Source: an uncultured delta proteobacterium
GTDB lineage: Bacteria; Desulfobacterota; Syntrophobacteria; BM002
Reading direction: 5' to 3'
NCBI GenBank assembly: GCA_963712115.1
Contig: CAVQGX010000032.1
Coordinates: 1-64,000 of the forward strand
Length of the DNA stretch: 64,000 bases
Part shown: in pieces, positions 403 through 36,750 of the stretch
Layout of the letters: the number at the start of each line of letters is the position of its first letter
Numbering within the stretch: position 1 is the first letter of the stretch
Position numbers and translations under genes: made by a program
Notes under the pieces: model-generated
Databases searched by the model: none
What the model saw: the letters and a program-made list of their open reading frames with translations, nothing else
Told to the model about the DNA's origin: nothing

Positions 403-2208
403 ATGAACATGGAGGCTATCGAGGCAATGAAGGCTACGCCAACCCGGAACAACCTGCCGTTACGGCTTGCAGATTTTTCCACTTTAGCAGAGGCGCTGGA
501 CTACGCGGCCCAGGGTGAGACCGGATTCAATTTTTACACCGGCACGGGTAAGCTACATAGTGTGCTGCCATATGCGGACTTGCGGGAACAAGCGCAAACG
601 CTGGCGCGCCGTCTTCACAGTTTAGGTTTAGAACGTGGCGCGCGGGTCGCCCTCGTCGCCGATACAACCCCGGACTTCCATATCTTCTTCTTTGCCTGCC
701 AATACGCTGGACTGATACCCGTCCCTCTTACGGCCTCAATCCATTTAGGCGGTCACCAGGCCTACGTGGAGCAGTTGCGAAGATTACTGACCACCTGCCA
801 GGCGGAAGTCGCCATGGCCCCAGCTGATTTTCTCCCCTTTCTCTTAGAGGCTGCGGAGGGACTAAACTTACGTTTTGCTGGCGGTCCTGAAGTCTTTGCC
901 GAGTTACCGGAACAAGAAACTCAGCTACACCCGTCCCAGCCCAAGGAGATAGCTTACCTGCAGTATACTTCGGGAAGTACCCGGTTCCCCCGCGGAGTGG
1001 TCATCACCCAAGAGACAGTCTTGAGGAACCTGGCGGACATCGTCACGCACGGCGTCAAGATTCGACCTGGGGACCGCTGTGTTTCCTGGCTTCCCTACTA
1101 TCATGATATGGGGCTTGTCGGGCTGGTGTTGGCCCCGCTGGCGTCCCAGTTATCCGTTGATTACCTGAGCACCCGAGATTTTGCCATGCGTCCCCGGGTA
1201 TGGCTGAAGATGATGACGGAAACTCGAGCTACGCTCTCTTTAAGCCCGCCTTTCGGTTATGAGTTGTGCGTGCGTCGTCTGCGCAAAGAAGAGTCAGATA
1301 AATTCGACCTCAGCGCCTGGCGCGTGGCCGGTGTCGGTGCGGAAACCATTCGACCCGAACCTTTGACCCAGTTCGCCGAAATGCTTGCACCAAGCAATTT
1401 TGACAAGAATGCTTTTCTCGCTTGCTACGGTATGGCGGAATGCTCCCTGGCAGTGAGCCTTGCACCTCTTGCCCAGGGGCTGGAGGTGGACTGCGTGGAT
1501 GCGGAGCATCTTGCTGAACACCAAGAGGCGCTGCCTGTGAACGGCGGGAACGGCAAGTCTGCTGTTCGATCCAACCATTTTGTCAATTGCGGAGTGCCGT
1601 TGCCGGATTATGAAGTTGAGGTTCGAGGCAAACACGGACGAGCTCTGGCAGAACGACGCTGCGGGACTCTTTTCGTTCGGGGACCAAGCGTAATGTCCGG
1701 CTATTTTGGCGACCCGGAAGCAACTCAACAGGTTCTGTCGCCAGATGGCTGGCTCGACACCGGAGATCTCGGCTACCGGATTGGGAACTCCTTTGTTGTT
1801 ACTGGACGCGAGAAGGATTTAATCATTATTAATGGCCGAAATATCTGGCCACAGGATCTCGAGTACCTGGCTGAGCAGCAGACCGAAGTAAGGACAGGAG
1901 ATGCCTCGGCTTTCTCGGTTCCTGGGCCGGATGGCGAAGAAAAGGCCGTTTTAGTGATCCAGTGCCGCGTCTCAGATGTAATGAAACGTGCCAGCCTGAT
2001 GGAACGGTTGCATGGCCTAGTTCGCGAAGAATTGGGCATCGACTGTTTTATCGAGTTGGTACCTTCTCACACACTGCCCAGAACTTCCTCCGGGAAGTTG
2101 TCTCGCTCCGGGGCACGACAGGATTTTCTGAAACGAGTTAACTGGGCACAATTGCGGCAACCCCAACCATTGGATTTTGCCCGGGCTCTTGGCGAGAGAG
2201 CCGTATAG
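403..2208 (+). CDS. Fatty acyl-AMP ligase (FAAL; acyl-ACP synthetase for a dedicated ACP)
   Basis: 601 aa; [18 protein letters not shown]-binding motif, [30 protein letters not shown]; adjacent to ACP and SPT. Confidence 0.9.
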
Positions 2209-2380
2209 TTCCAAGTTTTCACAGAGAGCGGCAAGACTCGCCAAGAAAAGGCGTAACCTTGCCCGGCCATGGAAGGTTTCGTCAAGACAGGGTGCGGGTG
2301 AAACGCATAGCGACCTAAATGATTTCGCTGTTTGACGTAAGTTTTGAAATTTTCAGGCTAGCGCCTGCTGGAACAGCTCA

Positions 2381-3316
2381 ATGTCGCGCACGATAGCCCT
2401 GACGGGGGCGACGGGATTCATCGGCGGCGTCCTAGCGCGGCGACTGGAAACCATTGGCTGGCAGATCCGAGCGCTTGTCCGTCCCGCATCGCTCGGTGCA
2501 CGTTACGCCGGAACTGCCACCCAGTGGATAGAAGGTGACCTTGAGGATCTTGACAGCCTGCGCCGCCTGGTAAATAATGATGTTTATGCCGTAGTACACT
2601 GCGCGGGTGCAGTGCGGGGTGCTTCTCAAGCGCAGTTTGATGGTGTGAATGTAGATGGCGTGGCAAGACTGGTGCAAGCAGCGAGAGAGCAGCACCGGGT
2701 GCCACGTTTTTTATTGATATCTTCTCTGGCGGCACGGGAGCCGCACTTATCTCCTTACGCTGCCAGCAAGCGGCAAGGTGAGGACACGCTCGCCGCGACT
2801 GCCGGTGATATGAATTGGGCAGTGCTGCGACCGTCCGCTGTCTACGGACCTGGAGACAAGGAACTGCTTCCCCTTTTTCGCTGGATCGGGCGAGGTATCG
2901 CTCCGATTCTCGGCTCCCGTAGTGCACGGTTTTCTTTACTATACGTGGAAGATCTGGCAGAATCCGTGGTGCAATGGCTGAATTCTGATACCAATGAGCG
3001 GCGCGCTTTTGAATTGCACGATGGGCACCCAGACGGTTATGCTTGGCATGATGTGGTTGATACTGTCGCTCGGCTCTATGACAGGCACGTGTTTCGCATA
3101 CAAGTGCCGGTGGTCATACTCCGATTGTTGGCCGGTCTGAACCTTGGAGCGGCGCAAATATTCGGATATGCGCCAATGCTCACGCCCGGGAAGGTCCGCG
3201 AGCTCAACCACTCCAACTGGGTGTGTGATAATGACGCCCTGACCCGCGAGACGGGCTGGGCGCCGCGAGTTTCGCTCGCCGAGGGGTTGCAGCGCACTCT
3301 GAGACTGGGCGGCTGA
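2381..3316 (+). CDS. NAD-dependent epimerase/dehydratase (extended SDR), likely CerR-like ceramide reductase
   Basis: TGATGFIG Rossmann motif, ISSLAA, YAASK catalytic motif, RPSAVYGPGD; sits between FAAL and ACP-SPT as in alphaproteobacterial sphingolipid clusters. Confidence 0.75.
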   Translation: MSRTIALTGATGFIGGVLARRLETIGWQIRALVRPASLGARYAGTATQWIEGDLEDLDSLRRLVNNDVYAVVHCAGAVRGASQAQFDGVNVDGVARLVQAAREQHRVPRFLLISSLAAREPHLSPYAASKRQGEDTLAATAGDMNWAVLRPSAVYGPGDKELLPLFRWIGRGIAPILGSRSARFSLLYVEDLAESVVQWLNSDTNERRAFELHDGHPDGYAWHDVVDTVARLYDRHVFRIQVPVVILRLLAGLNLGAAQIFGYAPMLTPGKVRELNHSNWVCDNDALTRETGWAPRVSLAEGLQRTLRLGG

Positions 3317-3364
3317 TGCCGTGAGTGTTCCCACAACCCGAGAAAATGAGTTAAGGTAGAATTG

Positions 3365-3616
3365 ATGAAAGGTTATGAAGAAATCTTGGCAGTGCTTTAC
3401 GAGAGGCTGAAGCCGTCCGTCAAGGCTGGCCGGAAGCTTGAAGAAGATACGGATCTAGTGGCTGATCTTGGCCTCGATTCTTTGAAGGTAATGACCCTGG
3501 TGGAGGAGGTAGAGGACTACTTCGATATCTCCATCCCATTGAACATCCTCGCCAACGTGCGCACCATCAAAGACTTTGCCACCCAACTCCAACAGCTAAC
3601 AGAGGAAGGACAATAA
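3365..3616 (+). CDS. Acyl carrier protein (dedicated)
   Basis: About 83 aa acidic protein with DLGLDSL phosphopantetheine site; stop overlaps the SPT start (TAATG). Confidence 0.92.
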   Translation: MKGYEEILAVLYERLKPSVKAGRKLEEDTDLVADLGLDSLKVMTLVEEVEDYFDISIPLNILANVRTIKDFATQLQQLTEEGQ

Positions 3617-4818
3617 TGGCCATTTTTGACAAATTCCAGCATATTGTTGAGGCCCTCCAAGAATTGGCGGAAAGTGGAGTCGACACCATCAATGTAGTCA
3701 TGGAGCAGATTATCTCGCCCACCGAGGCAATGATAAATGGCCGTCATACGATTCTTGCTGGCACCAACAACTATTTGGGGCTTACATTTGATCCCGACTG
3801 TATCGACGCAGCCTGCAAGGCTATTCATGACCAGGGCACCGGCACCACCGGTTCGAGAATGGCCAACGGCACGTACGCCGGCCATGTGGCACTGGAGCAC
3901 GATTTGGCAGATTTCTTCGGCTGTCGTGGCACTATAGTTTTTTCCACCGGGTATGTGGCCAACCTAGGCGTGCTGGCGGCCCTGGCTGGTCCTGAAGATG
4001 TCATCCTCTTGGATGCCGACTGTCATGCAAGTATCTACGATGGCTGCCGATTGGGTGGCGCTGACGTAATACGTTTTCGCCATAATGACGTGAATGACCT
4101 GGAAAAGCGGCTGAAACGACTAGGAGAACGGACAGAGAATGCACTGATCCTGGTGGAAGGTATTTACAGCATGTTGGGAGACCGCGCACCTTTGGCGGAC
4201 ATTGCAGCGGTAAAGAATAAATACGGTGCCTATCTGCTCGTAGACGAGGCACATTCTGTGGGTGTGCTCGGTGAAAATGGCCGTGGCCTTGCAGAGGAGG
4301 CCGGGGTGGAGGACAGTGTGGATTTCATCGTCGGCACCTTCAGCAAAAGCCTAGGTTCAATCGGGGGCTACTGTGCGAGTAACCATCCCGAGTTGGAGTT
4401 GATCCGCTACGCCAGTAGACCATACATATTTACTGCATCGCCCTCCCCTTCTATCATTGCCTCAACTCGTGCTGCCTTGGCCGCTCTGCGCGCCCGTCCT
4501 GAGTTGCGCCAAAGACTGTGGGATAACGCCCGCAGATTATATCAGCGGCTGCAAGAGATGGGATTCGTTTTAGGCCCGGAGCCCAGCCCGATTGTGGCCA
4601 TCCGGTTGGGGAGTAAAGCGGAGGCCCTCAGCCTCTGGACCGGGCTTCTGGAACACGGAGTGTACGTCAACATGGTTCTGCCCCCAGCTACACCTGATAA
4701 TTTCCCCCTGCTCCGTTGTAGCATGAGCGCTGGTCATTCAACGGAACAGGTGGAGCGAATTTGCCAGGCATTTGAGGAGGGTCATCGGAACATGACGCTG
4801 GCGTCGCGAACAGCCTGA
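3616..4818 (+). CDS. spt: Serine palmitoyltransferase (alpha-oxoamine synthase family)
   Basis: GTNNYLGL, GTTGSRMANGT, DADCHASIYDG, VDEAHS, GTFSKS (PLP lysine), YIFTAS, PPATP..LLRCS, which resemble Sphingomonas-type SPT more than BioF/Kbl; ACP/FAAL/reductase context. Confidence 0.82.
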   Translation: MAIFDKFQHIVEALQELAESGVDTINVVMEQIISPTEAMINGRHTILAGTNNYLGLTFDPDCIDAACKAIHDQGTGTTGSRMANGTYAGHVALEHDLADFFGCRGTIVFSTGYVANLGVLAALAGPEDVILLDADCHASIYDGCRLGGADVIRFRHNDVNDLEKRLKRLGERTENALILVEGIYSMLGDRAPLADIAAVKNKYGAYLLVDEAHSVGVLGENGRGLAEEAGVEDSVDFIVGTFSKSLGSIGGYCASNHPELELIRYASRPYIFTASPSPSIIASTRAALAALRARPELRQRLWDNARRLYQRLQEMGFVLGPEPSPIVAIRLGSKAEALSLWTGLLEHGVYVNMVLPPATPDNFPLLRCSMSAGHSTEQVERICQAFEEGHRNMTLASRTA

Positions 4819-4874
4819 GAGGACTGAACCTTTAGAAGCATTGGTATAGGTGAGATTCAAAGGTATTTAGCCAT

Positions 4875-6617
4875 ATGCGTTTACTGATTTCCCTAGCTCG
4901 CAAGTATCCCTGGCAAAGCGTTATCATGCTTCTCTCTCTTTTGTTAGCAGGAGTGGCCGAGGGGATCGGTCTGTCTGCCCTTCTTCCCTTGATCTCCATT
5001 GCCATCGGTAAACAAACTGGGGTTCAGGGGGGTACTTTTGCAGGTGGCTCAGGCCTGGAGCGGACGGTAAGCGAGACACTTTCAGCCATAGGTCTGAGCC
5101 CCACCCTCGGTGTATTGCTCACTGTGATCACCCTCGCTATAGTGCTGAAAGGTGTGCTGTTACTCTTGGCCAAAAAGCGGATTGGTTACACAGTCGCCCA
5201 AGTCGCTACTGACCTGCGTCTTTCCCTGCTCCGCGCACTCCTGGTCACCAAATGGGAGTACTTCATTCGTCAGCCCGTTGGCGTGCTCAGCAACGCCATA
5301 GCAACCGAGGCAAATCGGACGTCGAAGGCTTACTCGTGCGGGATCAACATGATCGCCCTACTCGTGCAGGCACTAATATACGCTTGTGTGGCCTTGCTCG
5401 TATCTTGGCGGGCAACCCTCCTTGCCATAGCCGCGGGCGTATTCCTGGTTTACATATTGAGCCATCTGGTCAAGAAAGCACGGCGAGCCGGTTTCCGCCA
5501 AACCGAATTAATGAAATCATTACTTACACATCTCACTGATACTCTGTTGTCGATTAAGCCTCTAAAAGCTATGGCTCGTGAAAGCCGGGCGGACGCCCTG
5601 TTGGAAAAGAAAACCAACCGGTTGAACAAAGCACTACGAAAGGAAGTTCTCACCAACGAGACCTTAAAAGCATCACAGGAGCCATTACTTATAGTTTTCG
5701 CAGCAATTGGCCTGTACGGTGCCCTCATTTACTGGCATATGACATTAGCAAGGGTGATGGTGCTGACATTTCTACTTGTTCGGGTGGTAAGACAGCTAAG
5801 CAAAGTCCAAGAGCAGTATCAACAGATGGCGATCCTTGAAAGCGCATATTGGTCACTAAAAGAAACTATCCATGAGGCGGAAAGGGCGCATGAGCCAGCG
5901 CTCGGTTCAGAGATCCCCTCCCTAAACCATGGAATTCGCTTGGATCGGGTTAGTTTTGCCTACGACCAAGAATTGGTGCTCCGGGATGCTTCTTTTGATT
6001 TTCCTTCCGGATTATTTACCGCAATCGTCGGCCCTTCAGGGGTGGGAAAAACAACTGTGGTGGATCTGTTAATGGGCTTGCTCCGACCTCAGGAAGGGGA
6101 AATATTTATCGACGACTTGCCCCTTGCTAAAGTCAATCTGAAAAGCTGGCGGAAAGTGATCGGCTATGTCCCCCAAGAGACCTTGCTGCTTCACGATACT
6201 ATTCTGATTAACGTTACACTCGGGGATCCTGATTTGACTGAGATAGACGCAGAGCAGGCATTACGGGCCGCGGAAGCTTGGGAGTTTGTAACGGCCATGC
6301 CACGTGGTATGCACAGCACCGTGGGTGAGCGTGGAAGTATGTTATCCGGGGGACAGCGGCAGCGCATTGCAATCGCCAGGGCTCTGGTACACAAACCGAA
6401 GCTGCTGATACTAGACGAGCCCACCAGTGCACTGGATCCCGAGAGCGAAGCAGCTATATGCAAGACTTTGGGCCAGCTGCGAGGGAGGGGGATAACGATC
6501 CTGGCTATTTCACATCAACCAAGAATAATGGATGTAGCAGACAGGGCTTATGAGTTGCAGAACGGCAAGGCTTTTGTGGTGCAGGACCACAAGCTTGCAA
6601 GCGTACATTCGGGGTAA
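4875..6617 (+). CDS. ABC exporter, fused TMD+NBD (MsbA/PglK-like glycolipid flippase)
   Basis: N-terminal TM helices; GPSGVGKT Walker A, LSGGQRQR signature, LLILDEPT Walker B. Confidence 0.85.
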   Translation: MRLLISLARKYPWQSVIMLLSLLLAGVAEGIGLSALLPLISIAIGKQTGVQGGTFAGGSGLERTVSETLSAIGLSPTLGVLLTVITLAIVLKGVLLLLAKKRIGYTVAQVATDLRLSLLRALLVTKWEYFIRQPVGVLSNAIATEANRTSKAYSCGINMIALLVQALIYACVALLVSWRATLLAIAAGVFLVYILSHLVKKARRAGFRQTELMKSLLTHLTDTLLSIKPLKAMARESRADALLEKKTNRLNKALRKEVLTNETLKASQEPLLIVFAAIGLYGALIYWHMTLARVMVLTFLLVRVVRQLSKVQEQYQQMAILESAYWSLKETIHEAERAHEPALGSEIPSLNHGIRLDRVSFAYDQELVLRDASFDFPSGLFTAIVGPSGVGKTTVVDLLMGLLRPQEGEIFIDDLPLAKVNLKSWRKVIGYVPQETLLLHDTILINVTLGDPDLTEIDAEQALRAAEAWEFVTAMPRGMHSTVGERGSMLSGGQRQRIAIARALVHKPKLLILDEPTSALDPESEAAICKTLGQLRGRGITILAISHQPRIMDVADRAYELQNGKAFVVQDHKLASVHSG

Positions 6618-6726
6618 GCAGAGGTTGAATCTGAGATAGTGGTGGATCTGAGACAGCGATTTTTGAGAAGTTTGGACTGAAGCATAAGATGAAATCTTCG
6701 TGGAATGATAACCCGAGTTTAAAGGT

Positions 6727-8127
6727 ATGAAAAGGAAACTACAACTCCTCATCCCAGTGGAAAACCAGGTACGGGAGTTTGATGCCAAGCTTCTGCTTGC
6801 CTTTATTGCAGCAAAACGAGGATTTTCTTCAGTAATCGGTTCCCGACGAGAGATGGAATTTCGCATCGCTTCCTTTCCACGGAGTCTATATCTCTCCAAG
6901 AGTATGACGATCCGAAGCGCCCTATTGTTTAAAGTTGCTCACAAGGTAGGCCACCATATAGTTGCATGGGACGAGGAAGCTCTCGTTCATCTGCCACCCG
7001 AAACCTATTTCTCGGATCGACTCTCTCCAGCATCCATCCGCTACGTATCTCACCTGCTCGCCTGGGGACAAGGCAACGCCAACTTGTGGCGACAATATCC
7101 CAATCTACCAAACGGTATTCCCATCCATCTCACCGGAAATCCGCGGGTTGACATGCTTCGGCCTGAGATGCGTCCCTTTTTTGCAGAAGATGTGGAGAAG
7201 ATTCGGAAAAGTTGCGGAAATTTTATCCTGGTAAACACCAATTTCAACCACGTAAATGCCTTTTCTCCGGAGATGAATCTTTTCAAGCCTGTCAAGAAAC
7301 CCGGGGAAACGCCCAAGTTCGGACGGGGCGCCAGGGGCATGAGCCGCGAGTTTGCCGAGGGATTGAGGGATCACAAGCAAGCTGTTTTCCAAAACTTCCA
7401 GCAGCTTGTCCCTGCCGTCGAGCGATCATTTCCGGAGTACACCATTATCGTCCGGCCTCATCCCACAGAAAACCAGGAAGTCTATCGCAATATAGCTGCA
7501 CAGTGCAAGCGAGTGCAGGTAACCAACGAGGGCAACGTGGTGCCCTGGATTTTGGCCTCGAAGGCGGTCATTCACAATGGCTGCACCACCGGTTTAGAGG
7601 CATACGTTATGGGGGTGCCAGCCATTTCTTACAGGAAAACAGTCAACGATGTCTATGACTTGGGCTTTTATCGCTTGCCCAATTTGCTCAGTCACCAGTG
7701 CTTCGATTTCGAAGAGTTGCATGCAACCCTTGGCAATATTCTTGCTGGCAAGCTTGGGCCTGCCGATGGAGCTGAGCGCCAAGAACTGGTGAACCACTAC
7801 ATGGTAGCCCTAGAAGGCCCTCTCGCCTGCGAGAGAATCGTCGATACCTGCGAGCAGATTTCTAATGATAGGGCAGGACTGCGAAAACCAGCTTTGCGGC
7901 ATCGGCTGAATCGCTGGTACCTCGCAAAGGGACTTGGTTTAGCAAACCGTTACAAATCACACCTTCCAGGTGAATTTAATAAACCTGCTTTCCAGCGCCA
8001 TCGCTATCCGGGAGTTTCCATTGAAGAGTTGCGTGCTCGACTCTCGCGATTTCAGCATATACTAGGATACAGCGAAAAGCTGAAGGTGGAAGAAATATCT
8101 GATCAGATTTTTCAGATCAGCTCTTAA
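6727..8127 (+). CDS. Surface carbohydrate biosynthesis protein (GT-B-like, putative CMP-ulosonate transferase), paralog 1
   Basis: LIPVENQVRE, WDEEAL, TGNPR, ILVNTNF, VRPHPTE, IHNGCTTGLEA motifs; three further paralogs in the window; directly upstream of neuB/neuA-like genes. Confidence 0.65.
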   Translation: MKRKLQLLIPVENQVREFDAKLLLAFIAAKRGFSSVIGSRREMEFRIASFPRSLYLSKSMTIRSALLFKVAHKVGHHIVAWDEEALVHLPPETYFSDRLSPASIRYVSHLLAWGQGNANLWRQYPNLPNGIPIHLTGNPRVDMLRPEMRPFFAEDVEKIRKSCGNFILVNTNFNHVNAFSPEMNLFKPVKKPGETPKFGRGARGMSREFAEGLRDHKQAVFQNFQQLVPAVERSFPEYTIIVRPHPTENQEVYRNIAAQCKRVQVTNEGNVVPWILASKAVIHNGCTTGLEAYVMGVPAISYRKTVNDVYDLGFYRLPNLLSHQCFDFEELHATLGNILAGKLGPADGAERQELVNHYMVALEGPLACERIVDTCEQISNDRAGLRKPALRHRLNRWYLAKGLGLANRYKSHLPGEFNKPAFQRHRYPGVSIEELRARLSRFQHILGYSEKLKVEEISDQIFQISS

Positions 8128-8149
8128 GAGGTTTCGGGAGGACTTAAAG

Positions 8150-8335
8150 AACCACAGAGGACCTTGCTGAGGCAAAGGGCATAGAGCAAATGACATAAAG
8201 CTTAGGCACAATTCGAATTTGCGATTTGAAAATTCGCAATTGTCCTTCGGACTCCCACCCTTCGGGCGGGTTCCCAGTTTCGCAATCCGAAATTCCAAAT
8301 TATTAGCCTTTGTGATCTTTGTGAACTTTGTGGTA
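8150..8335. repeat. Nested intergenic repeat element (9-bp periodic inverted ends, 7-bp repeats, internal hairpin insert)
   Basis: AACCACAGAG...CTTTGTGATCTTTGTGAACTTTGTGGT ends; heptamer tracts ATTCGAATTTGCGATTTG / TTCGCAATCCGAAATTCCAAAT; insert 8241-8278 flanked by TTCGCAAT. Confidence 0.75.
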
Positions 8336-8420
8336 AAAAACAAGCCTATCAGTTGGGAAGGGGAAAAACCCGTTTGGGTAAAAACCAGTTGGGGTTTGGA
8401 TTTGAGAAGGAGGAATATCG

Positions 8421-10306: not shown

Positions 10307-10320
10307 CAACATTTGAAGAA

Positions 10321-11805: not shown

Positions 11806-11816
11806 CCCTTAGCGGA

Positions 11817-11853
11817 TATTGGAGTGTTGGAGTACTGGAGTATTGGAGTGATG
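11817..11853. repeat. 8-bp tandem repeat (TRYTGGAG x4.5)
   Basis: TATTGGAG TGTTGGAG TACTGGAG TATTGGAG TGATG between the ALDH gene and neuA. Confidence 0.8.
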
Positions 11854-11861
11854 CTCATAAA

Positions 11862-12617: not shown

Positions 12618-12640
12618 CTGGTTAAAGGTCTATGTAAGTA

Positions 12641-18912: not shown

Positions 18913-19027
18913 CGCCACCTCGAAAAGGAATTATCCATCGATGCCTACCGGCTGATCGATCTCGCCTTCGTTGCAGATCGAATCAAGCCGTTAAGATTTC
19001 ATCCTTTACTTGTTTTGGAGAATCAGC

Positions 19028-19898: not shown

Positions 19899-19932
19899 GA
19901 AAGGACTATTACCGACCTCAGTAGTAATACTT

Positions 19933-20934: not shown

Positions 20935-21257
20935 CCATATTTTGTATCTGATCTTGACGTATTTACCTATAAAATAGCTTATGATTCTTTCACTAAGTCT
21001 TTGGCTTTATATCTTTTTCCTTTTCCCGGTGTCGAGAATTCACCCCAACGGTCCTTTTATTCGTTCCTGTCTCAGACTGACTTGCGTCGAGTTTCACGGC
21101 TCCATCAGTGCATTTTCAGCCTCAGAATGCATGGAATCTTACTATACTGCGTCACTGATTTGCTCATAGGCTTAGTCAGAGTTATCATCTTGTCTGCACT
21201 ACTGAGCTTATGGTGACATCAGGACAAGTCATTCACGGTCGGAATCCATGCGTCCTT

Positions 21258-22534
21258 TTAGTGAACGGAACAGTTCGTAATGAACTGTACGTAGTCTCCC
21301 AGTACATCCCTTTTGTTTTGCCCACCGTAAACAACTTCTGATAGAAATCTATTCACATTCTCATCCCCATAGGGCACGTCCATGCTCTTTTTTCGTAATG
21401 ACTGTAATGCCTGCTCTAGCTCAGCTTCGTTATGTATTGTCCAACACGCCCCACACTCTTCGAATAACATTGTATTTGCATGGAGATACTTGAGGTAAAG
21501 AACAGGCTTTTCCTTGCATGAGTGCCTCGGTAATGACGCTCGAACCAATGATCAGGACTACGTCGGCCCACTCACATAGTTCCGGGGTGAGTACATGTGT
21601 GAAACATTGGGCAATGTCAAGTTGTCAAAAAGGTGACCTTCCTACCAGTTCGGGTATGAGGCTTAACAACTACTTCAATTTCGCTGAGACTTGCCAACAG
21701 GTCGAATGTATTTGCATCCTCTCTACATCAATCCTGCAATGAGGTTTCGATGACCATAAAGACTACTTTTAATCTTTCTGGACTCTGCTAGTTGATTCAA
21801 TCATTCTTGGCAGTATTTTCCTGTTTTGTGCTATCCATTCGCCACAGAATCTAGCACTACCCAATACAACAATTTTTTCACTGAGCGATGCCGGACCGGA
21901 CGAGCACATCTTTCCTTAAATGGTTCTGGACAATCACGTAATCGAATCGATTAAACTTATGAAATCTCTGCCTTGCTGACGTTCTAGCTTTATAGGATTC
22001 ATTGGTATATAAGTAGACGCCGTGAGGGAGTGCCAGGGTTGGTATAGACTTCTCTTTAGCCGCCTCCAACAGCACGTTAACGACATATCTACTCGGAAAT
22101 ATGTGGTCAAAACACAAAAGTTGTGCTTCGCTTTCTTTTAGAAAGTGATGAGCCCAACTTTTTCTATAAAAACTAATTCTTGTCAGTTCATATAAAACAC
22201 GGCCTATACTCTGCGCTGCTAATTCGCTCAGGCGAGATAAAAGCAAAGGTTTTTCATGACGATGAGAGCTAAATTTGTTGCCTTTGGCGTAAAACCACAG
22301 AAAAAGATAACGCATGGTCTTATGGAGACCATTCATTTTCTGGTCAAAAGCATCATAAATTGATTCTACTGTAACCCCTTGTTTTTTCAAAAACTTGAGA
22401 CGATAATCATTCTCAATATCGTATCGTGGATTTATACAATAAACGGCAACTGGATAATTGTCTTGCTTCATCCTCCACACTACAGGGGTAATATGATCCA
22501 CGTCATTGAAGTGCCTGACGCAAAACAAGTACAT
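21258..22534 (-). CDS. Hypothetical polysaccharide-locus protein (GT-B-like), frameshifted
   Basis: Pieces 21878-22534 (RHFNDVDH, ALPHG) and 21258-21548 (KPVLYLKYLH) with coding-like sequence between; context only. Confidence 0.45.
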
Positions 22535-22567
22535 CGATCCACATTCCTTAAAAGCGGATAGCCAAAC

Positions 22568-23590
22568 TTAGTACTTGCTCCATACAGTCTCCTTCGACAT
22601 ACTCTCGATAAATTCGAGTTCCTCCTGGGCAAGTGTCTTGTATCTATTGAGCGTACTATTGATAATACCGTTTTTCTCTGCTTCAAAACTGGTGTTAGCT
22701 CTTATTGGATATTTATTAAAAGTGGGTTCCAACAAGATATCCTCAAATTTTATTTCTAGGAATTCAGCCAGATAACGCATGACTGATTTTGTCTTGGTGA
22801 TCAAATCTTCAAATGTCAGGATACAAACACGATCTCCATATCTTTCTTTGTTCCGTAACATTGCCTGGGCACTCTTTTTCCACAGGTCTACTCCTTCCCG
22901 AATATCCCGGCAAATTCTAGGTTTGTGTCTGATAGCGGAAGGATACCAGTTTTTCGGATCCCTAATAATGGAAATCAATCTGCCGTCGGGATATATTTCG
23001 AAAAACGATTCCATATTGTCCTTGCTCATCGCCAGCCTTGCGGTAAAAGCCGTAATGAATCTCTTTTGGCCGGAGCTGTTTTGATTGTTGAGCCAGGCGC
23101 CAAAATAAGAGGTCATGTAACCGTCGAATACATCTCTGAGTGTTAGCGAATCGATTGAACCCACGTAATCCAAAAATATTTCCCTTTGCACAGAGGGCAG
23201 AAATAGAAAGAGAAAAGCGTCGTCTCGCTTTTTTTCCTTTTTATAGCCTTTTTTGAAATGACTGAGGACGCTGTACTCGAAGAGGGTTTCCAGCCACCGG
23301 TTTGGGTCATCTTTCAGGTCTAGTTTCGGCCAGGTATATTTCGTCGGATACCCAATCTTCAGTTCATGGGGATGAGCATGGAGTTCTGAATGCCCGTCAA
23401 AAAGTTGGCTCAGCAGAGTTCCGCCGGAACGCTGTATCTGAGAAATCAAAGCAAGCGGAGAAGTCACAGGCCGAGTGTGTTCTAGACACGCCTGGTAAAG
23501 GGTCTCTAAATGGATTCTACTTTGTCCGAACTCCATATTTATCTTCTTAATGCGCGAAATGGTTATGATATTCCCATGTATAAGGTTCAA
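22568..23590 (-). CDS. Sulfotransferase family protein (type A, copy 3)
   Basis: SQIQRSGGTLL, IIRDPKNW, TFEDL; closely similar to 14729-15874. Confidence 0.8.
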   Translation of the reverse strand: MNLIHGNIITISRIKKINMEFGQSRIHLETLYQACLEHTRPVTSPLALISQIQRSGGTLLSQLFDGHSELHAHPHELKIGYPTKYTWPKLDLKDDPNRWLETLFEYSVLSHFKKGYKKEKKRDDAFLFLFLPSVQREIFLDYVGSIDSLTLRDVFDGYMTSYFGAWLNNQNSSGQKRFITAFTARLAMSKDNMESFFEIYPDGRLISIIRDPKNWYPSAIRHKPRICRDIREGVDLWKKSAQAMLRNKERYGDRVCILTFEDLITKTKSVMRYLAEFLEIKFEDILLEPTFNKYPIRANTSFEAEKNGIINSTLNRYKTLAQEELEFIESMSKETVWSKY

Positions 23591-23615
23591 TTAGACCCTA
23601 CTCAATTTCGCGCCT

Positions 23616-23644
23616 AACCTAACTTCTTCCCCTGTTTTTGTCAA
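23616..23644 (-). promoter_or_regulatory. Sigma70-like promoter (copy 2, leftward)
   Basis: Minus strand TTGACA-N17-TAGGTT, duplicate of 16183-16211. Confidence 0.55.
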
Positions 23645-23659
23645 TGCCAACATATTGTT

Positions 23660-23871
23660 TGACGGCTTCGTAAAAAGCTCCATGTGCGGTGTTGCGCTTC
23701 ATCTTTCGTCACTGCGGCGCACCCATAAGTGCGCCTCATTCCAAAAGATTATTCGCGCTCGCTGCGCTCCGCTCAGTCCCACCACTTGGTGGCGGGTTCC
23801 CAGTTTCGCGCGCCTTGCATCTGGAGCTTTTTACTGTGCCGTCTCCTTGAGAGGTTTTTACGAAACCATCA
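23660..23871. mobile_element. MITE with 17-bp terminal inverted repeats and a 5-bp target duplication
   Basis: TGACGGCTTCGTAAAAA (23660-23676) vs TTTTTACGAAACCATCA (23855-23871), 15/17 inverted match; TTGTT on both flanks; no transposase. Confidence 0.8.
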
Positions 23872-23966
23872 TTGTTAAGATTTGGTGGAATCAAGGTTCA
23901 CCGAGTGCCCTTCCCTAAGGGTACAATCAACATACCCCTGGGAGTCAATCCCATGGGAATACCTGC

Positions 23967-23996
23967 TTGACAGTAAATCTTCCTTCAGGCTAGTAT
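23967..23996 (+). promoter_or_regulatory. Sigma70-like promoter (copy 2, rightward)
   Basis: TTGACA-N18-TAGTAT, duplicate of 16314-16343. Confidence 0.55.
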
Positions 23997-24132
23997 TCCA
24001 TCTCGCTCAAAGGAAAAAACAGGCTGCAATAACGTTGGCGACGTCTAAGCTAGAATAGTATGAAATCTATCCTTCAAAGCTGCATCTTGAGCCAGTCGTT
24101 GTCTGCAGGCATATGGAAGGTCAGGTGAGAGC

Positions 24133-25545
24133 ATGAATTCAGCCGTCAAAGGGACGCTACTTATCCCTGTTGAGAATCAGGTGCGGGAGCTTGACCCCAA
24201 GCTCTTGCTCGCCTATGTAGCAGCGAAACGTGGGTTTTCTTCCATACTCGGCTTCCGCCGGGAGATACACTTTCACATCTCGTCTTTTCCGCCGGGGATA
24301 TACCTCTCCAAGAGCATGACCGCCGCCAGTGACCTCATGTTTCAAATCATGCGAAAGCTCGGCCATGAGATCGTGGCTTGGGATGAAGAAGCGCTTGTCC
24401 ACTTGCCGCCTGATACCTATTTCTCCCGCCGGTTATCTCCTGTGGCGATGGCATTTGTATCCCATATGTTGGCTTGGGGCCAAGACAACGCTGAGCTGTG
24501 GCAACAATATCCCCACTTGCCAGATGGGGCAGAGATCCATGTCACGGGAAATCCTCGTAATGACTTGCTGCGGCCTGAGATCCGCCACTATTACGAAGAA
24601 ACGGTGGGAGAGTTGCGAAAGAGATACGGTGATTTCATTCTCATTAACACTAATTTCAATCACGTGAATGCCTTTTATCCGGGGCTGAATCTTTTCGTGC
24701 CCAACGACAAACCTGGGGGAGAGCCCAGGCCTGGTCGGGCGGCAAAGGGCATGAGCAGGGAGTATGCCGAAGGGCTGCGGGATCACAAACAGGCAATATT
24801 TGAGAAATTCCAGCAACTCATCCCTGCCGTTGAAAAAGCGTTCCCGAAATACAACATTGTTGTCCGGCCTCATCCCACGGAAAATCAAGAGATTTATCGC
24901 CAGATCGCTGCAGGGTGTGAGCGAGTGGAGGTAACCAATGAGGGCAACGTGGTCCCCTGGCTCATGGCCGCAAAGGCACTCATCCATAACGGCTGCACCA
25001 CCGGAGTGGAAGCCTATGTAATGGGCGTCCCGGCCATCTCCTACAGGGCGACAGTCAATGAGTATTACGACTACGGCTTCTATCGCTTACCCAATCTGCT
25101 CAGTCACCAGTGCTTCGACTTTGAGGAGTTGCGGCTGACCTTGGAGAAGATTCTTGCCGGGGAACTGGGAGCTGCGGGTGGAGATGAACGTAAAATCCTC
25201 GTTAGATCAGCATTTGGCGGCACTGGACGGTCCCTTGGCCTGTGAGCGCATCGTGGATGTTTGCGAAAAGATAATTGATGGGCAGTTCGAAAGGTCAAAA
25301 CCAGGCTTACTCGATCGTTTGACCGGCTACTGCATGGCAACCATGCGCACCCTAAAAAGAAAGATCAAGGCGCGCCTTCCACGTTCGCGCAATAAACCCG
25401 AGTTTCACCGCCATCGTTATCCTGAGGTTTCCCTTGAGGAAATGCGGGAGCGGATGTCAAGTTTCAGCAGGTGCTAGGCGACAGCAGAGAACTGCAGGTG
25501 GAACAGATATCCGATCAGTTTTTTCGGATTAGCGGCGGACATTAA
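24133..25545 (+). CDS. Surface carbohydrate biosynthesis protein paralog 3, two frameshifts near the 3' end
   Basis: 24133-25245, 25154-25477 and tail ...EQISDQFFRISGGH ending TAA 25545 align with 6727-8127. Confidence 0.75.
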
Positions 25546-25707
25546 GCTTGACACCTGACATTCGTTTGGGCGAACATCACGCCCTGCTAATGAGATGTTT
25601 CTATCTCTCATATTTCGGCATCCGCTTCGCGACGTGGGAGACGTAAATGAGTTGTCCGAGCAGACTACCATTTGTGGATGGAGACCAAATAGAGGTCGAG
25701 CAATAGC

Positions 25708-27112
25708 ATGAAGGCAACAAAAGCCACCCTTCTCATTCCAGTGGAGAATCAGGTGCGCGAACTCGATCCCAAGCTCCTGCTCGCCTGTATTGCCGCCAAG
25801 CGTGGGTTTTCCTCGGTGATCGGCTCACACCGGGAGATAGACTTCCGCATTGCATCATTTCCCAGAAGTCTATATCTCTGCAAAAGCTTCACGGTTAGTA
25901 ACCTCAAGATGTTTCGAATCATTCACAAGCTCGGACATGAAATCGTGTCTTGGGACGAAGAAGCGCTTGTCCACCTGCCCTCTGAGATGTATTACTCGCG
26001 CCGCCTTTCTCCCTTGACAATGAAGTATCTATCTCATCTGTTTGCCTGGGGTGAGGACAACGCTGAGCTTTGGCGGCAATATCCCGAATTCCCAGCCGGA
26101 TTGCCGATCCATGTAACCGGCAATCCTCGTAATGACATGTTGCGACCAGAAATGCGTGCTTTTTATGAAAACGAGGTTAAGGAAATCCGCAACGTTTACG
26201 GTGAGTTCATTCTCATTAACACCAATTTCAATCACGTAAATTCATTTTCACCGGTCCAAAATCTGTTCCAGCCGGTGAAAAACCCTGGAGAAGAACCCAT
26301 TTTCGGCAAAGCCGCGAGAGGAATGACCCGTGAATACGCTGAAGGGTTCAGAGATCACAAAACAGCAATCTTCGAAGACTTTCAGCGCCTCATTCCGGAC
26401 CTTGAAAAAGAGTTTCCGAGCTACACAATCGTTGTCAGGCCTCACCCAACGGAGAGTCAAGATATTTATAACAGAATTGCTGCCCAGTGCGAACGGGTGC
26501 GGGTTACCAACGAGGGCAACGTGGTTCCCTGGCTCATGGCCACCAGGGCGCTCATCCATAATGGTTGCACTACCGGGGTAGAGGCTTTCGTCATGGGGGT
26601 TCCCGCCATTTCCTACAGGGCCACGGTCAATGATTTCTACGATCATGGCTTCTACCGCTTACCGAATCTACTCAGTCACCAGTGCTTTGACTTTGAGGAG
26701 CTGAGTATAACTCTTAGGAAAGATTCTGGCCGGTGAACTAGGTGCTGCGAATGGAGAAGAACGGAAAGCACTAATTGAACATCATTTAGCTGCAAGAGAA
26801 GGACCCCTAGCCTGTGAGAGAATCATCGATGTTTTGGAAGAAATAATGGAAGACCGGCCTGAACTACCTAAGCCAGCCTTACCCGATCGGTTTGGCGGCT
26901 GGTGGATTGCGAACGGACGTCGCCTCATCAAACGGGCCAAGGCGTACCTCCCAGGTCCACACAACCGACCGAAGTTTCAGCGCCATCGTTACCCTGGTAT
27001 TTCACTGGAAGAACTGCATGATCGCATTAGAAGGTTTCAAAAGCTACTAGGCTACGAGGAAGAACTCAGAGTACAACAATTATACTCTCATATTTTTCAG
27101 ATCACTCCGTGA
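25708..27112 (+). CDS. Surface carbohydrate biosynthesis protein paralog 4, one frameshift
   Basis: 25708-26736 and 26834-27112 align with 6727-8127. Confidence 0.75.
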
Positions 27113-27131
27113 GGCAAAGCGAAGGATTAGT

Positions 27132-27993
27132 ATGAAGATTCTGATATTGGGGACGGGAAAGTCTGGAACTACAGCTCTCGTTTACAAGGTTGCCGGAGGA
27201 CTTCCCAACTGCCAAGCTTTCTCCGGTGGCCAACCCGGCAAACACTTAGGTAACTATGAGAACGCTGTGTACAAGCATACCTACGAAGAGCGCAAAGGTA
27301 AAAGCTTTGATCTTTACCAGGAACACTTACAAAAAGAGCATTACGACCGCAAGATCTGGATGGCCCGAGATCCTCGGGATGCCGCTGTCAGCCGCATGCT
27401 ATACCGGTGGCACAAGGGCCACCGTGGAAACAAGGAGCAATACCAGGCTCATCTCGAGCTGGTGTTAAAAAAGGAGCAGGATCCGAGATCCATTCCTTTC
27501 CATGTCATTTGCCGCTACACGGCTCACAATGGTTGGCCCATTACCACGGAGGAAGTGGTGGAGGAGGAGAGGATCCGCTATCAAAATATGAGTGACTTTG
27601 TCAAAACCCTAGGTGAGGATTGGTATCTCTTCACCTATGAGAGCATGGTCGGCAAGAATTTCGACAGTCTGAATAAGTATCTGGGATTTCAAGTAGAGGC
27701 AGGACGCTGAAGTCCCCAAGTCGACTGGAAAGGCGAAAGTGGTCAGGAAAAAGGCCGTGGGCGACTGGCGCCATTGGTTTACTGAGGAAGATGTGGATCT
27801 CTTCAAGCCTGCATATTTGCCCTACATGGAGGTAATCGGCTACGACTGCGATGATTGGACTCTCAGCAACAATCCAGTCATTGAACCCGAGTACTCATCC
27901 ATTTATATACAGCGGTTGGCCCGGATGAAGACTATCAATACTATTCGAAGGTTCAAAGACTCACTTCTACAACTTTTTTCGATAAGGAGTTGA
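27132..27993 (+). CDS. Sulfotransferase domain protein (type B, copy 2), one frameshift
   Basis: GTGKSGTT, ARDPRDAAVS, RKKAVGDWRHWFT; paralog of 19028-19898. Confidence 0.72.
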
Positions 27994-28095
27994 GATACAC
28001 CAGCGGACGCATTCGCCCTCCCTCGAAAGACGGAATGCGCAGCTAAGATTGAATTTTTGCCAAATTCTAACTTACTCGTAATCCTGATCTCCAAA

Positions 28096-28875
28096 TCAAC
28101 TAATTCTTAGCACTAGCGCTTGTCCGGTCACCAAATGGAACAGTTTGAAATTAGGATTATGCACGAATGAATTCATCGGTAGCTTTCTTTGGCACCTTTA
28201 CACGTAATAAAACCGTAATCGTCTACGATAATAACGCTGCCAGGGATTGTACGACCGCAAAAAATTCCAGGCAAAACTTCGTCACCGGATAAACGTCAAC
28301 GTCAATATGTACCATGCCAAAATTTGTTATCTTTTCTATGTGTTCCGCAGTCTTCAAAAAATCACCCTTATATATGATTGCATTAGGTGAACTGAGATAA
28401 GCTTTCACTTTTTCATACGATGTGTCTTCAAACGTGCCAATGCGATGTTTTCCGTCTATACTCTCATCCACAACAGCGTGACCTTCAAAGGTGTCAAATA
28501 TATAAAATTGGTTTTCATACCGTTCTGTTTTAGTGTTTCTATAATAAACTTGGCTGAACCTCCACGATAGGTGCCAACTTCTGCTAACGGAGAGTCTGGC
28601 GATGAGATATGGCGAACGGCTTGCCAAAGAGTATAGAGACGGTCGTAATTTAACGTGGTGGTCTGATCTTCGATGACTTGAGAGGCAATTTCGCTGAAAC
28701 CTGGCAGTTTCTTCAAGTCGATTTTTCTATGAGCATTGTACCATAAGTAGTTGTAATAAATTGTTCTTCTCTTAACAAGCGCATAATTTTGTCCCATTGT
28801 CTTGAGTAAGTTATTAACTCTATTAATGACCCTATGTTTAAACTTCAAAGGCTTATTTTCCAAAATATACTCCAT
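28096..28875 (-). CDS. TylF/MycF-family O-methyltransferase, several indels
   Basis: AEVGTYRGGS, FDTFEG, VHIDVDVY, IVDDYG motifs across pieces 28456-28875, 28223-28627 and a tail ending at 28096. Confidence 0.75.
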
Positions 28876-28923
28876 CTTTGTCGGTACTATGATTTTACTT
28901 CAAAAAGCAATTCATTTCTTGTT

Positions 28924-30416
28924 TTAATCTTGACCTACCTTTCTGATGTTTCTAACAGTCTTCATTATCAAGTAGCGCATCACGGCAAAAGGAAAAAGAA
29001 AAATAATTAATGGATAGCTCCACCATGGTTTTTTGTATTCCGGAGATGTTAAACTCATTTTATCCAAATTTTCAATGGCCTCAACGAAGATTGGAGTACA
29101 TGGCGAATCTAGTCCATGAGGACGAACAAAGCTTTCGATGAAACTTCTTATTCTTTCTTGGTAAGATGATTGCCCATTCAAAACTTTGCTTAATTGATCC
29201 AGATGTTCATCAAGGCTATCACTAATGTAGAGAAGGCCACCTTGCACCAGATAGTGAAAATGAAGAGTGCCCTCTTGAGTATTGTTAAAATCGGGCGCTA
29301 AGATGGTAAAAACAGGCTTATTGAGAATTCCTGCCTCGATCATGGCGCTGGTATTGATGCCAACTGCCGCCACGCTGTGATACATGGAATCGTAGAAGTC
29401 ATTCACGGAATTTTCATCCACAGGATTTGCACCCTTACGGGGATAAATTACCACATCCTGAAAATGAGAAAAGTCCGCATCTTCCCACTGTTCAACATTT
29501 CGTGGATGCGGTCTTACTAGTACTCCCATAGTTTCTTAGATCTGGATCTTTATGCTCTCTTAAGTCTCTTGGTCCATTTCGCCACAAATTCGACTTCCTT
29601 CGGTGCAATGAAGGGAGAAGAGCACAAATAAAGAATAAATGGTCTTTGACTCGGTAATCCTACATTACGCAGAAAATCTTCTCTTGAAGTAGACGGTTTA
29701 TGATCAAACCATTTATCGTAACACTGGGCACCGGTTATTACGACTTTGGAAGGTGAAATTCTGTGAAATTCGACCGCTTCACGTTTCTGTATCTCGTTCC
29801 AGACAAGAACTATATCTGTTTCGATTTGAATCAGGCTTTTGTTGGTTAAATTATCCCAACTAAATACACACAGCCCTGTCTTTATACCTAGAGATTTTGC
29901 ACTCTTAAGCCAGTCAAGTTGACTTGCTTTAAGATCGATTAAAGGGGTAACTAAAAAGACATCTGGATTATATGATTTAAGAATTTGTCGAACCGCTGAA
30001 TCAACAGGGATTGCACGTTCTATTTTTCTTAAAAAACTTACAAAGGACCAAATTCTTTTTTCACTGTTGCCAACAACAATTCTTAGAAGAAAACAGAGTA
30101 AGGAGGGCAACTCTGATGCAGCTCGTTGTCTTAGCTTATTTGAGCTATGATACCTCTTGTCAAGAAATCGCAGATAGGTTTGTAATAGTCTAATAGGCGT
30201 AGCAATTGGAGTCCAAAATCGATCACGCCAGGAATAGACAGCATAAGTAATTTTGGCATCATTTCGCTGGAGCTTTTTTATCTCATTTTCCTTGTAATCC
30301 TTCCCAATCTTATAGAAACCCAGGTGAACAGTGTGCCCTCTCTCTGCAAGCAGCCTCACAACAGATTCATAGTTGCGAAGATACTCCGAATGACGCAACA
30401 AAAAAAATATTCTCAT
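28924..30416 (-). CDS. Putative GT-B glycosyltransferase / CDP-glycerol glycerophosphotransferase-like protein, frameshifted near 29530-29560
   Basis: Pieces 29550-30416 (SWDNLTNK, VWNE, TGAQCYD) and 28924-29529 (VRPHP, GINTSAMIEA..KPV). Confidence 0.55.
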
Positions 30417-36748: not shown

Positions 36749-36750
36749 TT

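Follow-up and report, generated by a model that had tools for sequence, protein, structure and literature searches.

Ceramide genes joined to an acidic-sugar module in a Desulfobacterota genome: a candidate locus for ulosonate-capped, variably sulfated sphingolipids

What does a bacterium make when genes for ceramide synthesis run directly into genes for a CMP-activated acidic sugar and are followed by a series of sulfotransferase genes? The question is raised by a stretch of 64,000 nucleotides, here called the window, which is the initial 64 kb of contig C32 in a metagenome-assembled genome (MAG; 4.9 Mb in 70 contigs) of an uncultured delta proteobacterium. At positions 403-30416, genes for a fatty acyl-AMP ligase (FAAL), a reductase, an acyl carrier protein (ACP) and serine palmitoyltransferase (SPT) precede an ATP-binding cassette (ABC) exporter, a putative CMP-ulosonate transferase of family TIGR04396, a NeuB-type module and a zone of variable decoration genes (Table 1). 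A first-pass annotation, made from the sequence alone, had read this block as a pathway in which ceramide is decorated with an ulosonic acid, sulfated or methylated, and flipped by a dedicated exporter. Comparison with related genomes leads us to a similar reading, held with moderate confidence, in which the product would be an ulosonate-capped, variably sulfated sphingolipid. Bacterial ceramide synthesis has been defined genetically only recently, and few bacterial head groups are known. A conserved fusion of ceramide, CMP-ulosonate, transferase and sulfotransferase genes would set apart a new, strongly anionic class of glycosphingolipids in bacteria, and its carriers are abundant sediment sulfate reducers.

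Profile matches confirm the gene order given in the first-pass annotation, FAAL-reductase-ACP-SPT and then, on the same strand, the exporter, the putative ulosonate transferase and a NeuB/NeuA-type operon. From FAAL to the transketolase that follows the module, the genes form one co-oriented run with successive gaps of 173 and 46 nt, an overlap, gaps of 57, 110 and 294 nt, a second overlap, and gaps of 15, 57 and 112 nt; the stop codon of the ACP gene overlaps the SPT start. Bacterial spt genes have been described as paired with an ACP and an acyl-ACP synthetase (PMC9386255; this and the other papers cited here are represented by excerpts). The window has such a Caulobacter-type set, an SPT with an adjacent ACP and an adenylating acyl-ACP synthetase, and the latter, the FAAL, is kept upstream of SPT in relatives. 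Homologs of the CerR-like reductase (33-36% identity) occur immediately upstream of SPT in 16 out of 16 Sphingomonas-type loci (L054-L069), and neither a signal peptide nor a transmembrane (TM) segment was seen at the N-terminus of the window protein. The start of the window is a contig end, and the remainder of the sphingolipid locus is found at the end of contig C7, which holds a lipid-kinase-like gene (DAGK_cat), a metallophosphoesterase, LptG, LptF, an NTP_transf_3 gene and a bCerS-like gene; the ceramide pathway would thus be completed there. In the related genome G012 the same gene set sits directly upstream of FAAL in identical order, and its homologs of the C7 LptF and LptG pass the equivalog cut-offs. 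Four LptF/LptG genes, that is, two pairs, are present in the MAG. The bCerS-like protein has homologs of 41-46% identity close to SPT in loci of Sphingomonas and Robiginitomaculum. Contigs from sediment RNA libraries span positions 300-4730, FAAL through SPT, at 98-99% identity and match NeuB at about 93%, and none was found at 90% identity or more over 4719-8155; these contigs prove neither transcription nor operon structure, and DNA carry-over is possible.

The module downstream of the transferase is predicted to make a CMP-activated 2-keto-3-deoxy acidic sugar. The NeuB-family synthase scores below the cut-offs of both equivalog models concerned (NeuB_NnaB: 285 bits against 399.65; PseI: 238 bits against 340.25), and the cytidylyltransferase likewise stays below that of PseF (136.5 bits against 205.7) and far below those of the KdsB models. 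No amino-sugar precursor gene of the NeuC, PseB or PseC type is present in the window module. The short-chain dehydrogenase/reductase (SDR) invariably adjoins NeuB in relatives, and the aldehyde dehydrogenase (ALDH) is kept in all of their modules except that of locus L031. As for the transketolase, the two open reading frames (ORFs) of its N-terminal part share one frame in all relatives checked and are offset by one base in the window; an RNA-library contig from a relative lacks one base at 13048 relative to the window. A dicarboxylic ulosaric acid, in which SDR and ALDH would oxidise the terminal carbon of a sugar built from a transketolase-supplied tetrose, was considered as the product and set aside as speculation, as there is no evidence for it and nothing bacterial of the kind was found in the literature.

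SPT and the sugar module are linked across genomes. Scanning GTDB species genomes with the SPT protein yielded 64 loci, 23 of which have an SPT of at least 60% identity; the records related to the MAG are Desulfobacterota MAGs labelled Desulfobacterales, Syntrophobacterales and similar, which rules out a betaproteobacterium such as Nitrosomonas, an assignment that the name of the SPT model had suggested. The co-occurrence of spt with neuB/neuA, which the first-pass annotation proposed as a test, is borne out: 13 of the 23 loci have the orthologous NeuB-SDR-ALDH-cytidylyltransferase module just downstream of SPT on the same strand, seven end at a contig edge before the module could be seen, two (L046 and L048, both in a single Nitrospirales MAG) have another NeuA/NeuB(/NeuC) set, and just one (L047) is a true negative with SPT and the ABC exporter and no NeuB. 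A more distant locus (L070; SPT 52%) also has the module, which is absent from the remaining 40 loci (Sphingomonas, Robiginitomaculum, Bacteroidota and others). With genomes G020 and G021 added, adjacency is found in 16 other genomes and about eight gene orders, although kin among the linked genomes are not independent and these counts overstate the support. Linkage spans SPT identities from 97% down to 52% and persists across rearrangements. For instance, G020 has its exporter about 15 kb further downstream, a family 4 glycosyltransferase (GT4) and TIGR04396 precede NeuB in L032, L070 and G021, and TIGR04396 comes after the transketolase in L033. A homolog of orf30643, which in the window lies beyond the decoration genes, occurs inside the operon between the exporter and NeuB (L031) or between TIGR04396 and NeuB (G021). 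In the Nitrospirales MAG, two SPT loci are each followed by a cytidylyltransferase and a NeuB 30-32% identical to that of the window; in L046 NeuC also follows (377 bits, cut-off 235.9), as does a methyltransferase, with a TIGR04396 homolog of 38% identity about 6 kb further along. This set, a pathway of the sialic-acid type, appears to have been recruited to SPT independently. Within the class (122 genomes), SPT is found in nine genomes, the NeuB ortholog in 12 and both in seven, with SPT only in G048 and G062. The five same-genus MAGs with NeuB and no SPT are not counter-evidence, as their matches lie on 2.5-3.4 kb fragments of the same ABC-TIGR04396-NeuB-SDR-ALDH operon.

The two genes between SPT and NeuB, which the proposed co-occurrence test included, share in this conservation. 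Almost every Desulfobacterota-type locus that is not truncated has the exporter directly after SPT, among them L047 with its lack of NeuB. The exporter has about five hydrophobic segments and shares the TM domain and nucleotide-binding domain of type-IV exporters such as MsbA and PglK, but falls below every equivalog cut-off, PglK included (HepA: 278 bits against 725; MsbA, TIGR02203: 238.9 bits against 602). A true MsbA is encoded elsewhere in the window, which makes the SPT-linked exporter a second, MsbA-like one, in agreement with the first-pass annotation. As of PMC11087976, in the excerpt at hand, no bacterial sphingolipid flippase had been identified, and we regard this exporter as a concrete candidate for the missing activity. 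TIGR04396 genes are present in all five relatives with long contigs, and in four of these they stand in tandem about 25 kb or less downstream of SPT. The window copy next to the exporter is the sole intact one there; it has no TM segment, and an R-P-H-P motif is invariant in an alignment of 10 sequences. At 61.3 bits against a cut-off of 200 for NF046086, it is related to the BFO_1060 family without being a member. A search of the TIGR04396 alignment profile against solved structures gave nothing below an E-value of 0.07.

The strongest evidence for a ceramide acceptor comes from relatives in which lipid A genes were not detected. LpxB, LpxC and WaaA had no match in eight genomes for which no completeness figures are available (G044, G045, G515, G517, G518, G519, G520 and G523). 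These are Desulfobacterales-type genomes of 4.1-5.6 Mb that carry loci L035, L036, L037, L039, L040, L043, L044 and L049. In seven of the eight, the NeuB module is seen adjoining SPT. LptD is present in all eight, and LptF/LptG homologs lie beside SPT in every one of these loci but L035, where only lipid-kinase-like, metallophosphoesterase and NTP-transferase genes are seen upstream of SPT. Among comparison genomes, LpxB and LpxC were found in 11 out of 11 and WaaA in the eight tested; in the closed 7.0-Mb chromosome of G041, LpxC is present and LpxB and WaaA are unmatched. It is unlikely that three unlinked genes are missing from all eight genomes by chance, and these organisms may be diderms without lipid A. 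Since LpxB, LpxC and WaaA are not found, the sugar cannot sit on a lipopolysaccharide (LPS) core in that clade. We tentatively entertain a further possibility for these Desulfobacterales: their ulosonate-capped, partly sulfated sphingolipid might be the outer-leaflet lipid, flipped by the SPT-linked exporter and carried by the Lpt machine. A glycosphingolipid would then have taken the place of LPS for a second time, independently, and the window organism would make both lipids. Such a role would link the Lpt machine to a cargo other than LPS, and a clade apparently without lipid A genes that retains the cluster makes directly testable the old question of what fills the outer leaflet once LPS is lost.

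Downstream of the transketolase lies a variable zone with a GC content of 0.39-0.49, compared to 0.51-0.55 upstream. The three additional TIGR04396 paralogs reported in the first-pass annotation are indeed located here, albeit all frameshifted (three, two and one times, respectively); reading through the copy at 24133-25536, one passes five stops before the C-terminal consensus resumes. The count of five sulfotransferases holds in part: three proteins exceed the PF13469 cut-off, one of them frameshifted, whereas the other two are sub-threshold PF00685 matches. These two are paralogs of 67% identity, and homologs of the one at 19010-19762 lie beside TIGR04396 genes in G020, G012, G044 and G045. 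Orthologs of the intact sulfotransferase at 14729-15874 occur near the SPT cluster in G043 and G020. The two O-methyltransferases comprise an intact FkbM-type gene, with similar genes after the module in L037, L049 and L100, and a frameshifted TylF-like gene with a weak match. The short GT-B-like protein has homologs beside sulfotransferases in contig C63 of the same MAG, G020, G012, G043 and G184, and homologs of the two halves of the split GT-B-like protein are adjacent in L037, right after the cytidylyltransferase. Overall, decoration genes are variable yet recurrent across relatives: G020 has five TIGR04396 and about six sulfotransferase-like genes after the module, G012 mirrors the window, and G044 and G045 combine tandem TIGR04396 genes with a homolog of the sub-threshold second-type sulfotransferase, to which G044 adds an FkbM gene. 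The minus-strand ORF at 17276-17956 (226 amino acids) was rejected as a gene: in several genomes, each copy of TIGR04396 matches it on the antisense strand, and it is an antisense-frame artefact.

The state of the assembly matters for how this zone is read. About 10 frameshifts fall within 12.7-30.4 kb of the window, affecting the three extra TIGR04396 paralogs, the sulfotransferase at 20043-20964, the TylF-like gene, the N-terminal part of the transketolase and the split GT-B-like protein at 28924-30416, whereas the core genes at 403-12617 are intact. LpxK and the adenosine 5'-phosphosulfate (APS) kinase are split in the same manner, which makes assembly indels a live explanation and weakens any call of pseudogenes in the variable zone; indels and real decay are about equally likely. 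Contig C63 (23.9 kb) is a diverged copy of positions 12897-30700 at 78-88% nucleotide identity, which begins in the transketolase, and ends in an orf30643 homolog. Its TIGR04396 genes, three in number, are intact, and it also has sulfotransferases and a 1.4-kb repeat present twice. This repeat, probably an insertion sequence (IS) element, has copies at 99.5-99.9% identity on C30, C35, C42, C53 and C62. C63 is either a co-binned strain variant or a true second locus or duplication. Long stretches are also duplicated between C45 and C43 and between C70 and C43 (98-99% nucleotide identity) and between C39 and C40 (86-96%), so the MAG probably mixes related strains or species. A promoter and terminator scan of positions 1-16500 was uninformative, with counts equal to those in shuffled sequence.

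Table 1. Features of the locus, its neighbours in the window and related genes elsewhere in the MAG (G000). Cut-offs are those of the respective profiles.
Feature	Coordinates	Strand	Evidence and state
Fatty acyl-AMP ligase (FAAL)	403-2208	+	NF006624 813 bits, cut-off 600; PF00501
CerR-like NAD-dependent reductase, epimerase family	2381-3316	+	PF01370, 9.7e-27
Dedicated ACP	3362-3616	+	ACP models 1e-8 to 7e-10, below cut-offs; DSL phosphopantetheine-site motif
Serine palmitoyltransferase (SPT)	3616-4818	+	NF047599 equivalog 644.8 bits, cut-off 500; PF00155; GTFSKS pyridoxal-phosphate (PLP)-lysine motif
ABC half-transporter, MsbA/HepA/PglK-like	4875-6617	+	PF00664 and PF00005
TIGR04396 "surface carbohydrate biosynthesis protein", putative CMP-ulosonate transferase	6727-8127	+	378.7 bits, cut-off 125
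NeuB-family ulosonate synthase	8421-9497	+	PF03102 256 bits, 3.2e-76, plus SAF (PF08666)
SDR	9494-10306	+	PF13561/PF00106; nearest models sugar-acid dehydrogenases, all below cut-off
Aldehyde dehydrogenase (ALDH)	10321-11805	+	PF00171, 7.8e-154; below all equivalog cut-offs
CMP-ulosonate synthetase-like cytidylyltransferase	11862-12617	+	PF02348 (CTP_transf_3) 78 bits, cut-off 22.6
Split transketolase	12729-14533	+	N-part 12729-13758 frameshifted, C-part 13640-14533; PF00456, PF02779, PF02780
Sulfotransferase, Sulfotransfer_3 type, intact	14729-15874	-	PF13469 51.3 bits, cut-off 27
FkbM-family methyltransferase, intact	16438-17289	+	PF05050; TIGR01444 84.9 bits, cut-off 37.7
TIGR04396 paralog	17325-18707	+	Three frameshifts; tblastn pieces in frames 3, 1, 2, 3
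Putative sulfotransferase, second type	19010-19762	+	PF00685 14.9 bits, cut-off 22, E 0.018
Sulfotransferase, Sulfotransfer_3 type, frameshifted	20043-20964	-	PF13469 52.9 bits on C-terminal ORF 20043-20702; N-terminal piece 20964-20689 in other frame
Short conserved GT-B-like protein	21878-22534	-	Weak Glyco_transf_4 match, E 0.024
Sulfotransferase, Sulfotransfer_3 type, intact	22568-23590	-	PF13469 50.1 bits, cut-off 27
TIGR04396 paralog	24133-25536	+	368 bits over first 370 residues; two frameshifts (out-and-back) near C-terminus
TIGR04396 paralog	25708-27106	+	363 bits; one frameshift, frame change at about 26715
Putative sulfotransferase, second type	27132-27710	+	PF00685 19.9 bits, E 5.5e-4, cut-off 22
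TylF-like O-methyltransferase, frameshifted	28223-28875	-	Weak PF05711 match, E 0.032; two overlapping ORFs in different frames
Split GT-B-like protein, distant BFO_1060-family relative	28924-30416	-	NF046086 30 bits, E 2.4e-7
orf30643, conserved soluble protein	30643-31845	-	Weak GHL10 match, E 0.048; no TM segment
LPS core and lipid A genes	31846-50185	-	Three WaaP-like kinases, GT4, two heptosyltransferases, HAD, LpxL, split LpxK, WaaA, MsbA, LpxB, LpxI fusion, LpxA, LpxD
LpxK	39660-40728		Split: two overlapping ORFs, different frames
True MsbA	42699-44504	-	TIGR02203 622.2 bits, cut-off 602
bCerS-like acyltransferase candidate	C7 77811-78887		N-terminus cut by contig end; weak GNAT matches; no NCBIfam match
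APS kinase, for 3'-phosphoadenosine 5'-phosphosulfate (PAPS)	G000 contig C37:112457-112916		Split: two overlapping ORFs, different frames

From the family-level gene identities and the conserved linkage we infer an acceptor, a sugar, an order of steps and roles for the flippase and the Lpt proteins as follows. The FAAL would charge the dedicated ACP with a fatty acid, which SPT would condense with serine, and the bCerS-like acyltransferase from C7 and the CerR-like reductase would complete the ceramide. In parallel, the NeuB-family synthase, SDR, ALDH and cytidylyltransferase, aided by the transketolase, would supply the CMP-activated acidic sugar, which the soluble TIGR04396 transferase would add to ceramide, phospho-ceramide or glyco-ceramide at the cytoplasmic face. 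Optional extension and decoration may come from the variable zone, through its TIGR04396 paralogs, methyltransferases and PAPS-dependent sulfotransferases. Finally, the SPT-linked exporter would flip the finished lipid, and the second LptF/LptG pair would pass it to the Lpt bridge towards the outer leaflet.

Several observations weigh against this pathway. It draws on linkage and family membership, and the MAG behind it is 94.4% complete with 5.99% contamination and duplicated contigs. Three out of four TIGR04396 copies in the window are frameshifted, the TIGR04396 genes of G041 lie far from SPT, and Sulfotransfer_3 genes occur in only one of the five long-contig relatives (G043, inside the cluster). 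The Caulobacter CerR has been reported to be periplasmic (PMC11087976), which complicates the order of steps; if this is true here, glycosylation might precede reduction. The NeuB-SDR-ALDH-(cytidylyltransferase)-transketolase module (NeuB 53-67% identical) is also found in three 100%-complete, LpxC-positive genomes whose best SPT-like gene is BioF beside bioD, bioA or bioB, so the sugar can serve another acceptor; in one of these SPT-less genomes, G409, it is flanked by GT4 and a WaaP-like kinase. In the window itself, LPS core and lipid A genes border the block, and orf30643 directly follows the WaaP-like kinases. The module is therefore a portable source of acidic sugar, able to serve more than one lipid or glycan. 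The first-pass proposal of an ulosonate-bearing, sulfated or methylated ceramide flipped by the exporter is supported in part: the linkage and the exclusion of LPS in one clade speak in favour, whereas the sub-cut-off scores of NeuB and cytidylyltransferase, the SPT-less genomes and the disruption of most extra transferases limit how far it can be carried.

The alternative that survives best, though we consider it unlikely, is that the genes for the ulosonate, TIGR04396, the sulfotransferases and the methyltransferases serve to modify the LPS core, with addition in the cytoplasm before MsbA flips the product, as in sialylated lipo-oligosaccharide (LOS), with the ceramide operon as a mere neighbour. 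The window organism has a full LPS core and lipid A set as well as ceramide genes, with the sugar module between them, an arrangement shared by G012, so that its acceptor is a matter of inference, and the SPT-less, LpxC-positive genomes, G409 in particular, fit this alternative. The first-pass annotation had noted that no Wzx/Wzy, Wzm/Wzt, WaaL or KpsMT genes appear in the window. Indeed, Wzy_C, Polysacc_synt and ABC2_membrane have no match on contig C32, but their absence is no objection to an LOS-type core decoration, which needs MsbA alone. The module is, however, co-oriented and contiguous with SPT while the LPS genes occupy the opposite strand, and it stays next to SPT in some eight different gene orders. 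In G042 and G043, WaaA and SPT are unlinked, and the 10-kb flanks of the SPT-NeuB loci contain no LPS-core gene except LpxL-like matches (31-36% identity) upstream in L037 and L043, which are also seen in the cut loci L041 and L044. The eight relatives with the SPT cluster and no match to LpxB, LpxC or WaaA are the hardest to reconcile with an LPS-core acceptor.

It is improbable, and more so than decoration of the LPS core, that the locus makes some other surface glycoconjugate, for example a protein glycan of the Tannerella kind or an acidic oligo- or polysaccharide that has a lipid anchor and is exported through the ABC transporter, with or without ceramide as the anchor. The transferase family has characterised relatives whose acceptors are protein O-glycans (PMC5420450), and tandem transferases, up to five in G020 and three intact ones in C63, suggest a chain over a single cap. 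In G184, moreover, the module is combined with an MsbA-like exporter, a distant TIGR04396 relative, a sulfotransferase and an MBOAT protein, and no SPT. Against this, the contig has no Wzx, Wzy_C or ABC2_membrane gene, no oligosaccharyltransferase or flagellin-glycosylation gene was recognised among the annotated genes at 403-31845, and the conserved operon fusion with SPT would be left unexplained. Very improbable, finally, is the absence of any functional unit, with adjacency as inherited synteny and a decaying or non-functional variable zone: the frameshifts, the lower GC content, the IS copies in C63 and the kinship of many linked loci would agree with it, but the linkage holds from 97 to 52% SPT identity, through rearrangements and with a non-orthologous NeuA/B/C set in Nitrospirales, the core genes are intact, and the likewise split LpxK and APS kinase point to assembly indels over decay.

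An ulosonate-capped, variably sulfated sphingolipid as product would have several partial precedents. In Caulobacter crescentus, spt, acp, an acyl-ACP synthetase gene, cerR and bcerS are clustered, along with other genes of CPG/CPG2 synthesis. The window organism groups SPT, ACP and the FAAL likewise, with candidates for CerR and bCerS, and has a lipid-kinase-like gene and a second LptF/LptG pair on C7. A ceramide kinase and LptC2/F2/G2 are encoded beside the ceramide genes there (bioRxiv 10.1101/2024.02.16.580706), and the product is an anionic outer-membrane sphingolipid (bioRxiv 10.1101/2024.02.16.580706; PMC9393093). In the excerpted parts of these sources, the Caulobacter locus is not described with a NeuB-type pathway, TIGR04396, sulfotransferases or an ABC exporter, all of which are present in the window. 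The Caulobacter head group is phosphoglycerate, whereas that predicted for the window is an acidic sugar, and the likeness is judged from gene families. We regard the locus as a variant of the bacterial loci for complex sphingolipids.

In sphingomonads, glycosphingolipids stand in for LPS and their sugar is a uronic acid. Sphingomonas loci have SPT, CerR-like and bCerS-like genes in one neighbourhood, as does the window organism, and the concept of a ceramide bearing an acidic sugar in a diderm that lacks lipid A is mirrored by the eight relatives that have LptD and no LpxB, LpxC or WaaA. By contrast, no ABC exporter, NeuB module or TIGR04396 gene lies within 10 kb in the Sphingomonas loci, and the window genome, unlike those of sphingomonads, keeps a full lipid A pathway. 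For the transferase step, members of the BFO_1060 family in Tannerella are genetically required for the transfer of pseudaminic or legionaminic acid (Pse/Leg; PMC5420450). The Tannerella forsythia enzymes are soluble, have about 450 residues and an HP motif, and are encoded beside a CMP-nonulosonate pathway (PMC5420450, excerpt); the same applies to TIGR04396. Their acceptor is a protein O-glycan, and the window protein falls outside their family.

In mucosal pathogens, sialylated LOS arises by cytoplasmic addition of the sugar of a CMP-ulosonate to an acceptor linked to lipid, a process that needs no Wzx, Wzy or WaaL and has lipid A-core as its anchor. The window resembles this system in that the sugar machinery adjoins LPS core genes, and differs from it in the fusion of the module with a ceramide operon and in the retention of the module by genomes that lack lipid A genes. 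We found no paper joining bacterial spt with neuB or nonulosonic acids in literature searches, one of which mostly returned unrelated words. From anoxic waters of the Black Sea, sulfated 1-deoxyceramides without an assigned producer have been reported, with Desulfobacterota among the candidates (PMC11334938); ulosonate ceramides are not reported in the excerpt of that paper.

A few neighbouring features deserve mention. Locus L092 (G184:C7:257500-277499), in a genome that has no SPT, places the module and a fused transketolase beside genes for a D-2-hydroxyacid dehydrogenase, a DltB-like MBOAT protein, a sulfotransferase and an MsbA-like ABC exporter; its TIGR04396 relative is distant (27% identical), and the locus may represent another lipid-anchored acidic glycoconjugate system. 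In the window, three tandem kinases of the Kdo/WaaP family (31846-34314) adjoin orf30643. Since the homolog of the latter lies elsewhere within the SPT-NeuB operon, these kinases might also act on the ulosonate glycolipid. The identification of orf30643 as WaaL or Wzy was ruled out, as it has no TM segment and only the weak GHL10 match. BamA follows LpxD in the same minus-strand stretch, and LpxI is fused to a GFO/IDH/MocA oxidoreductase domain (45811-47703; 630 amino acids). GFO/IDH/MocA-type oxidoreductases take part in making diamino-sugar lipid A.

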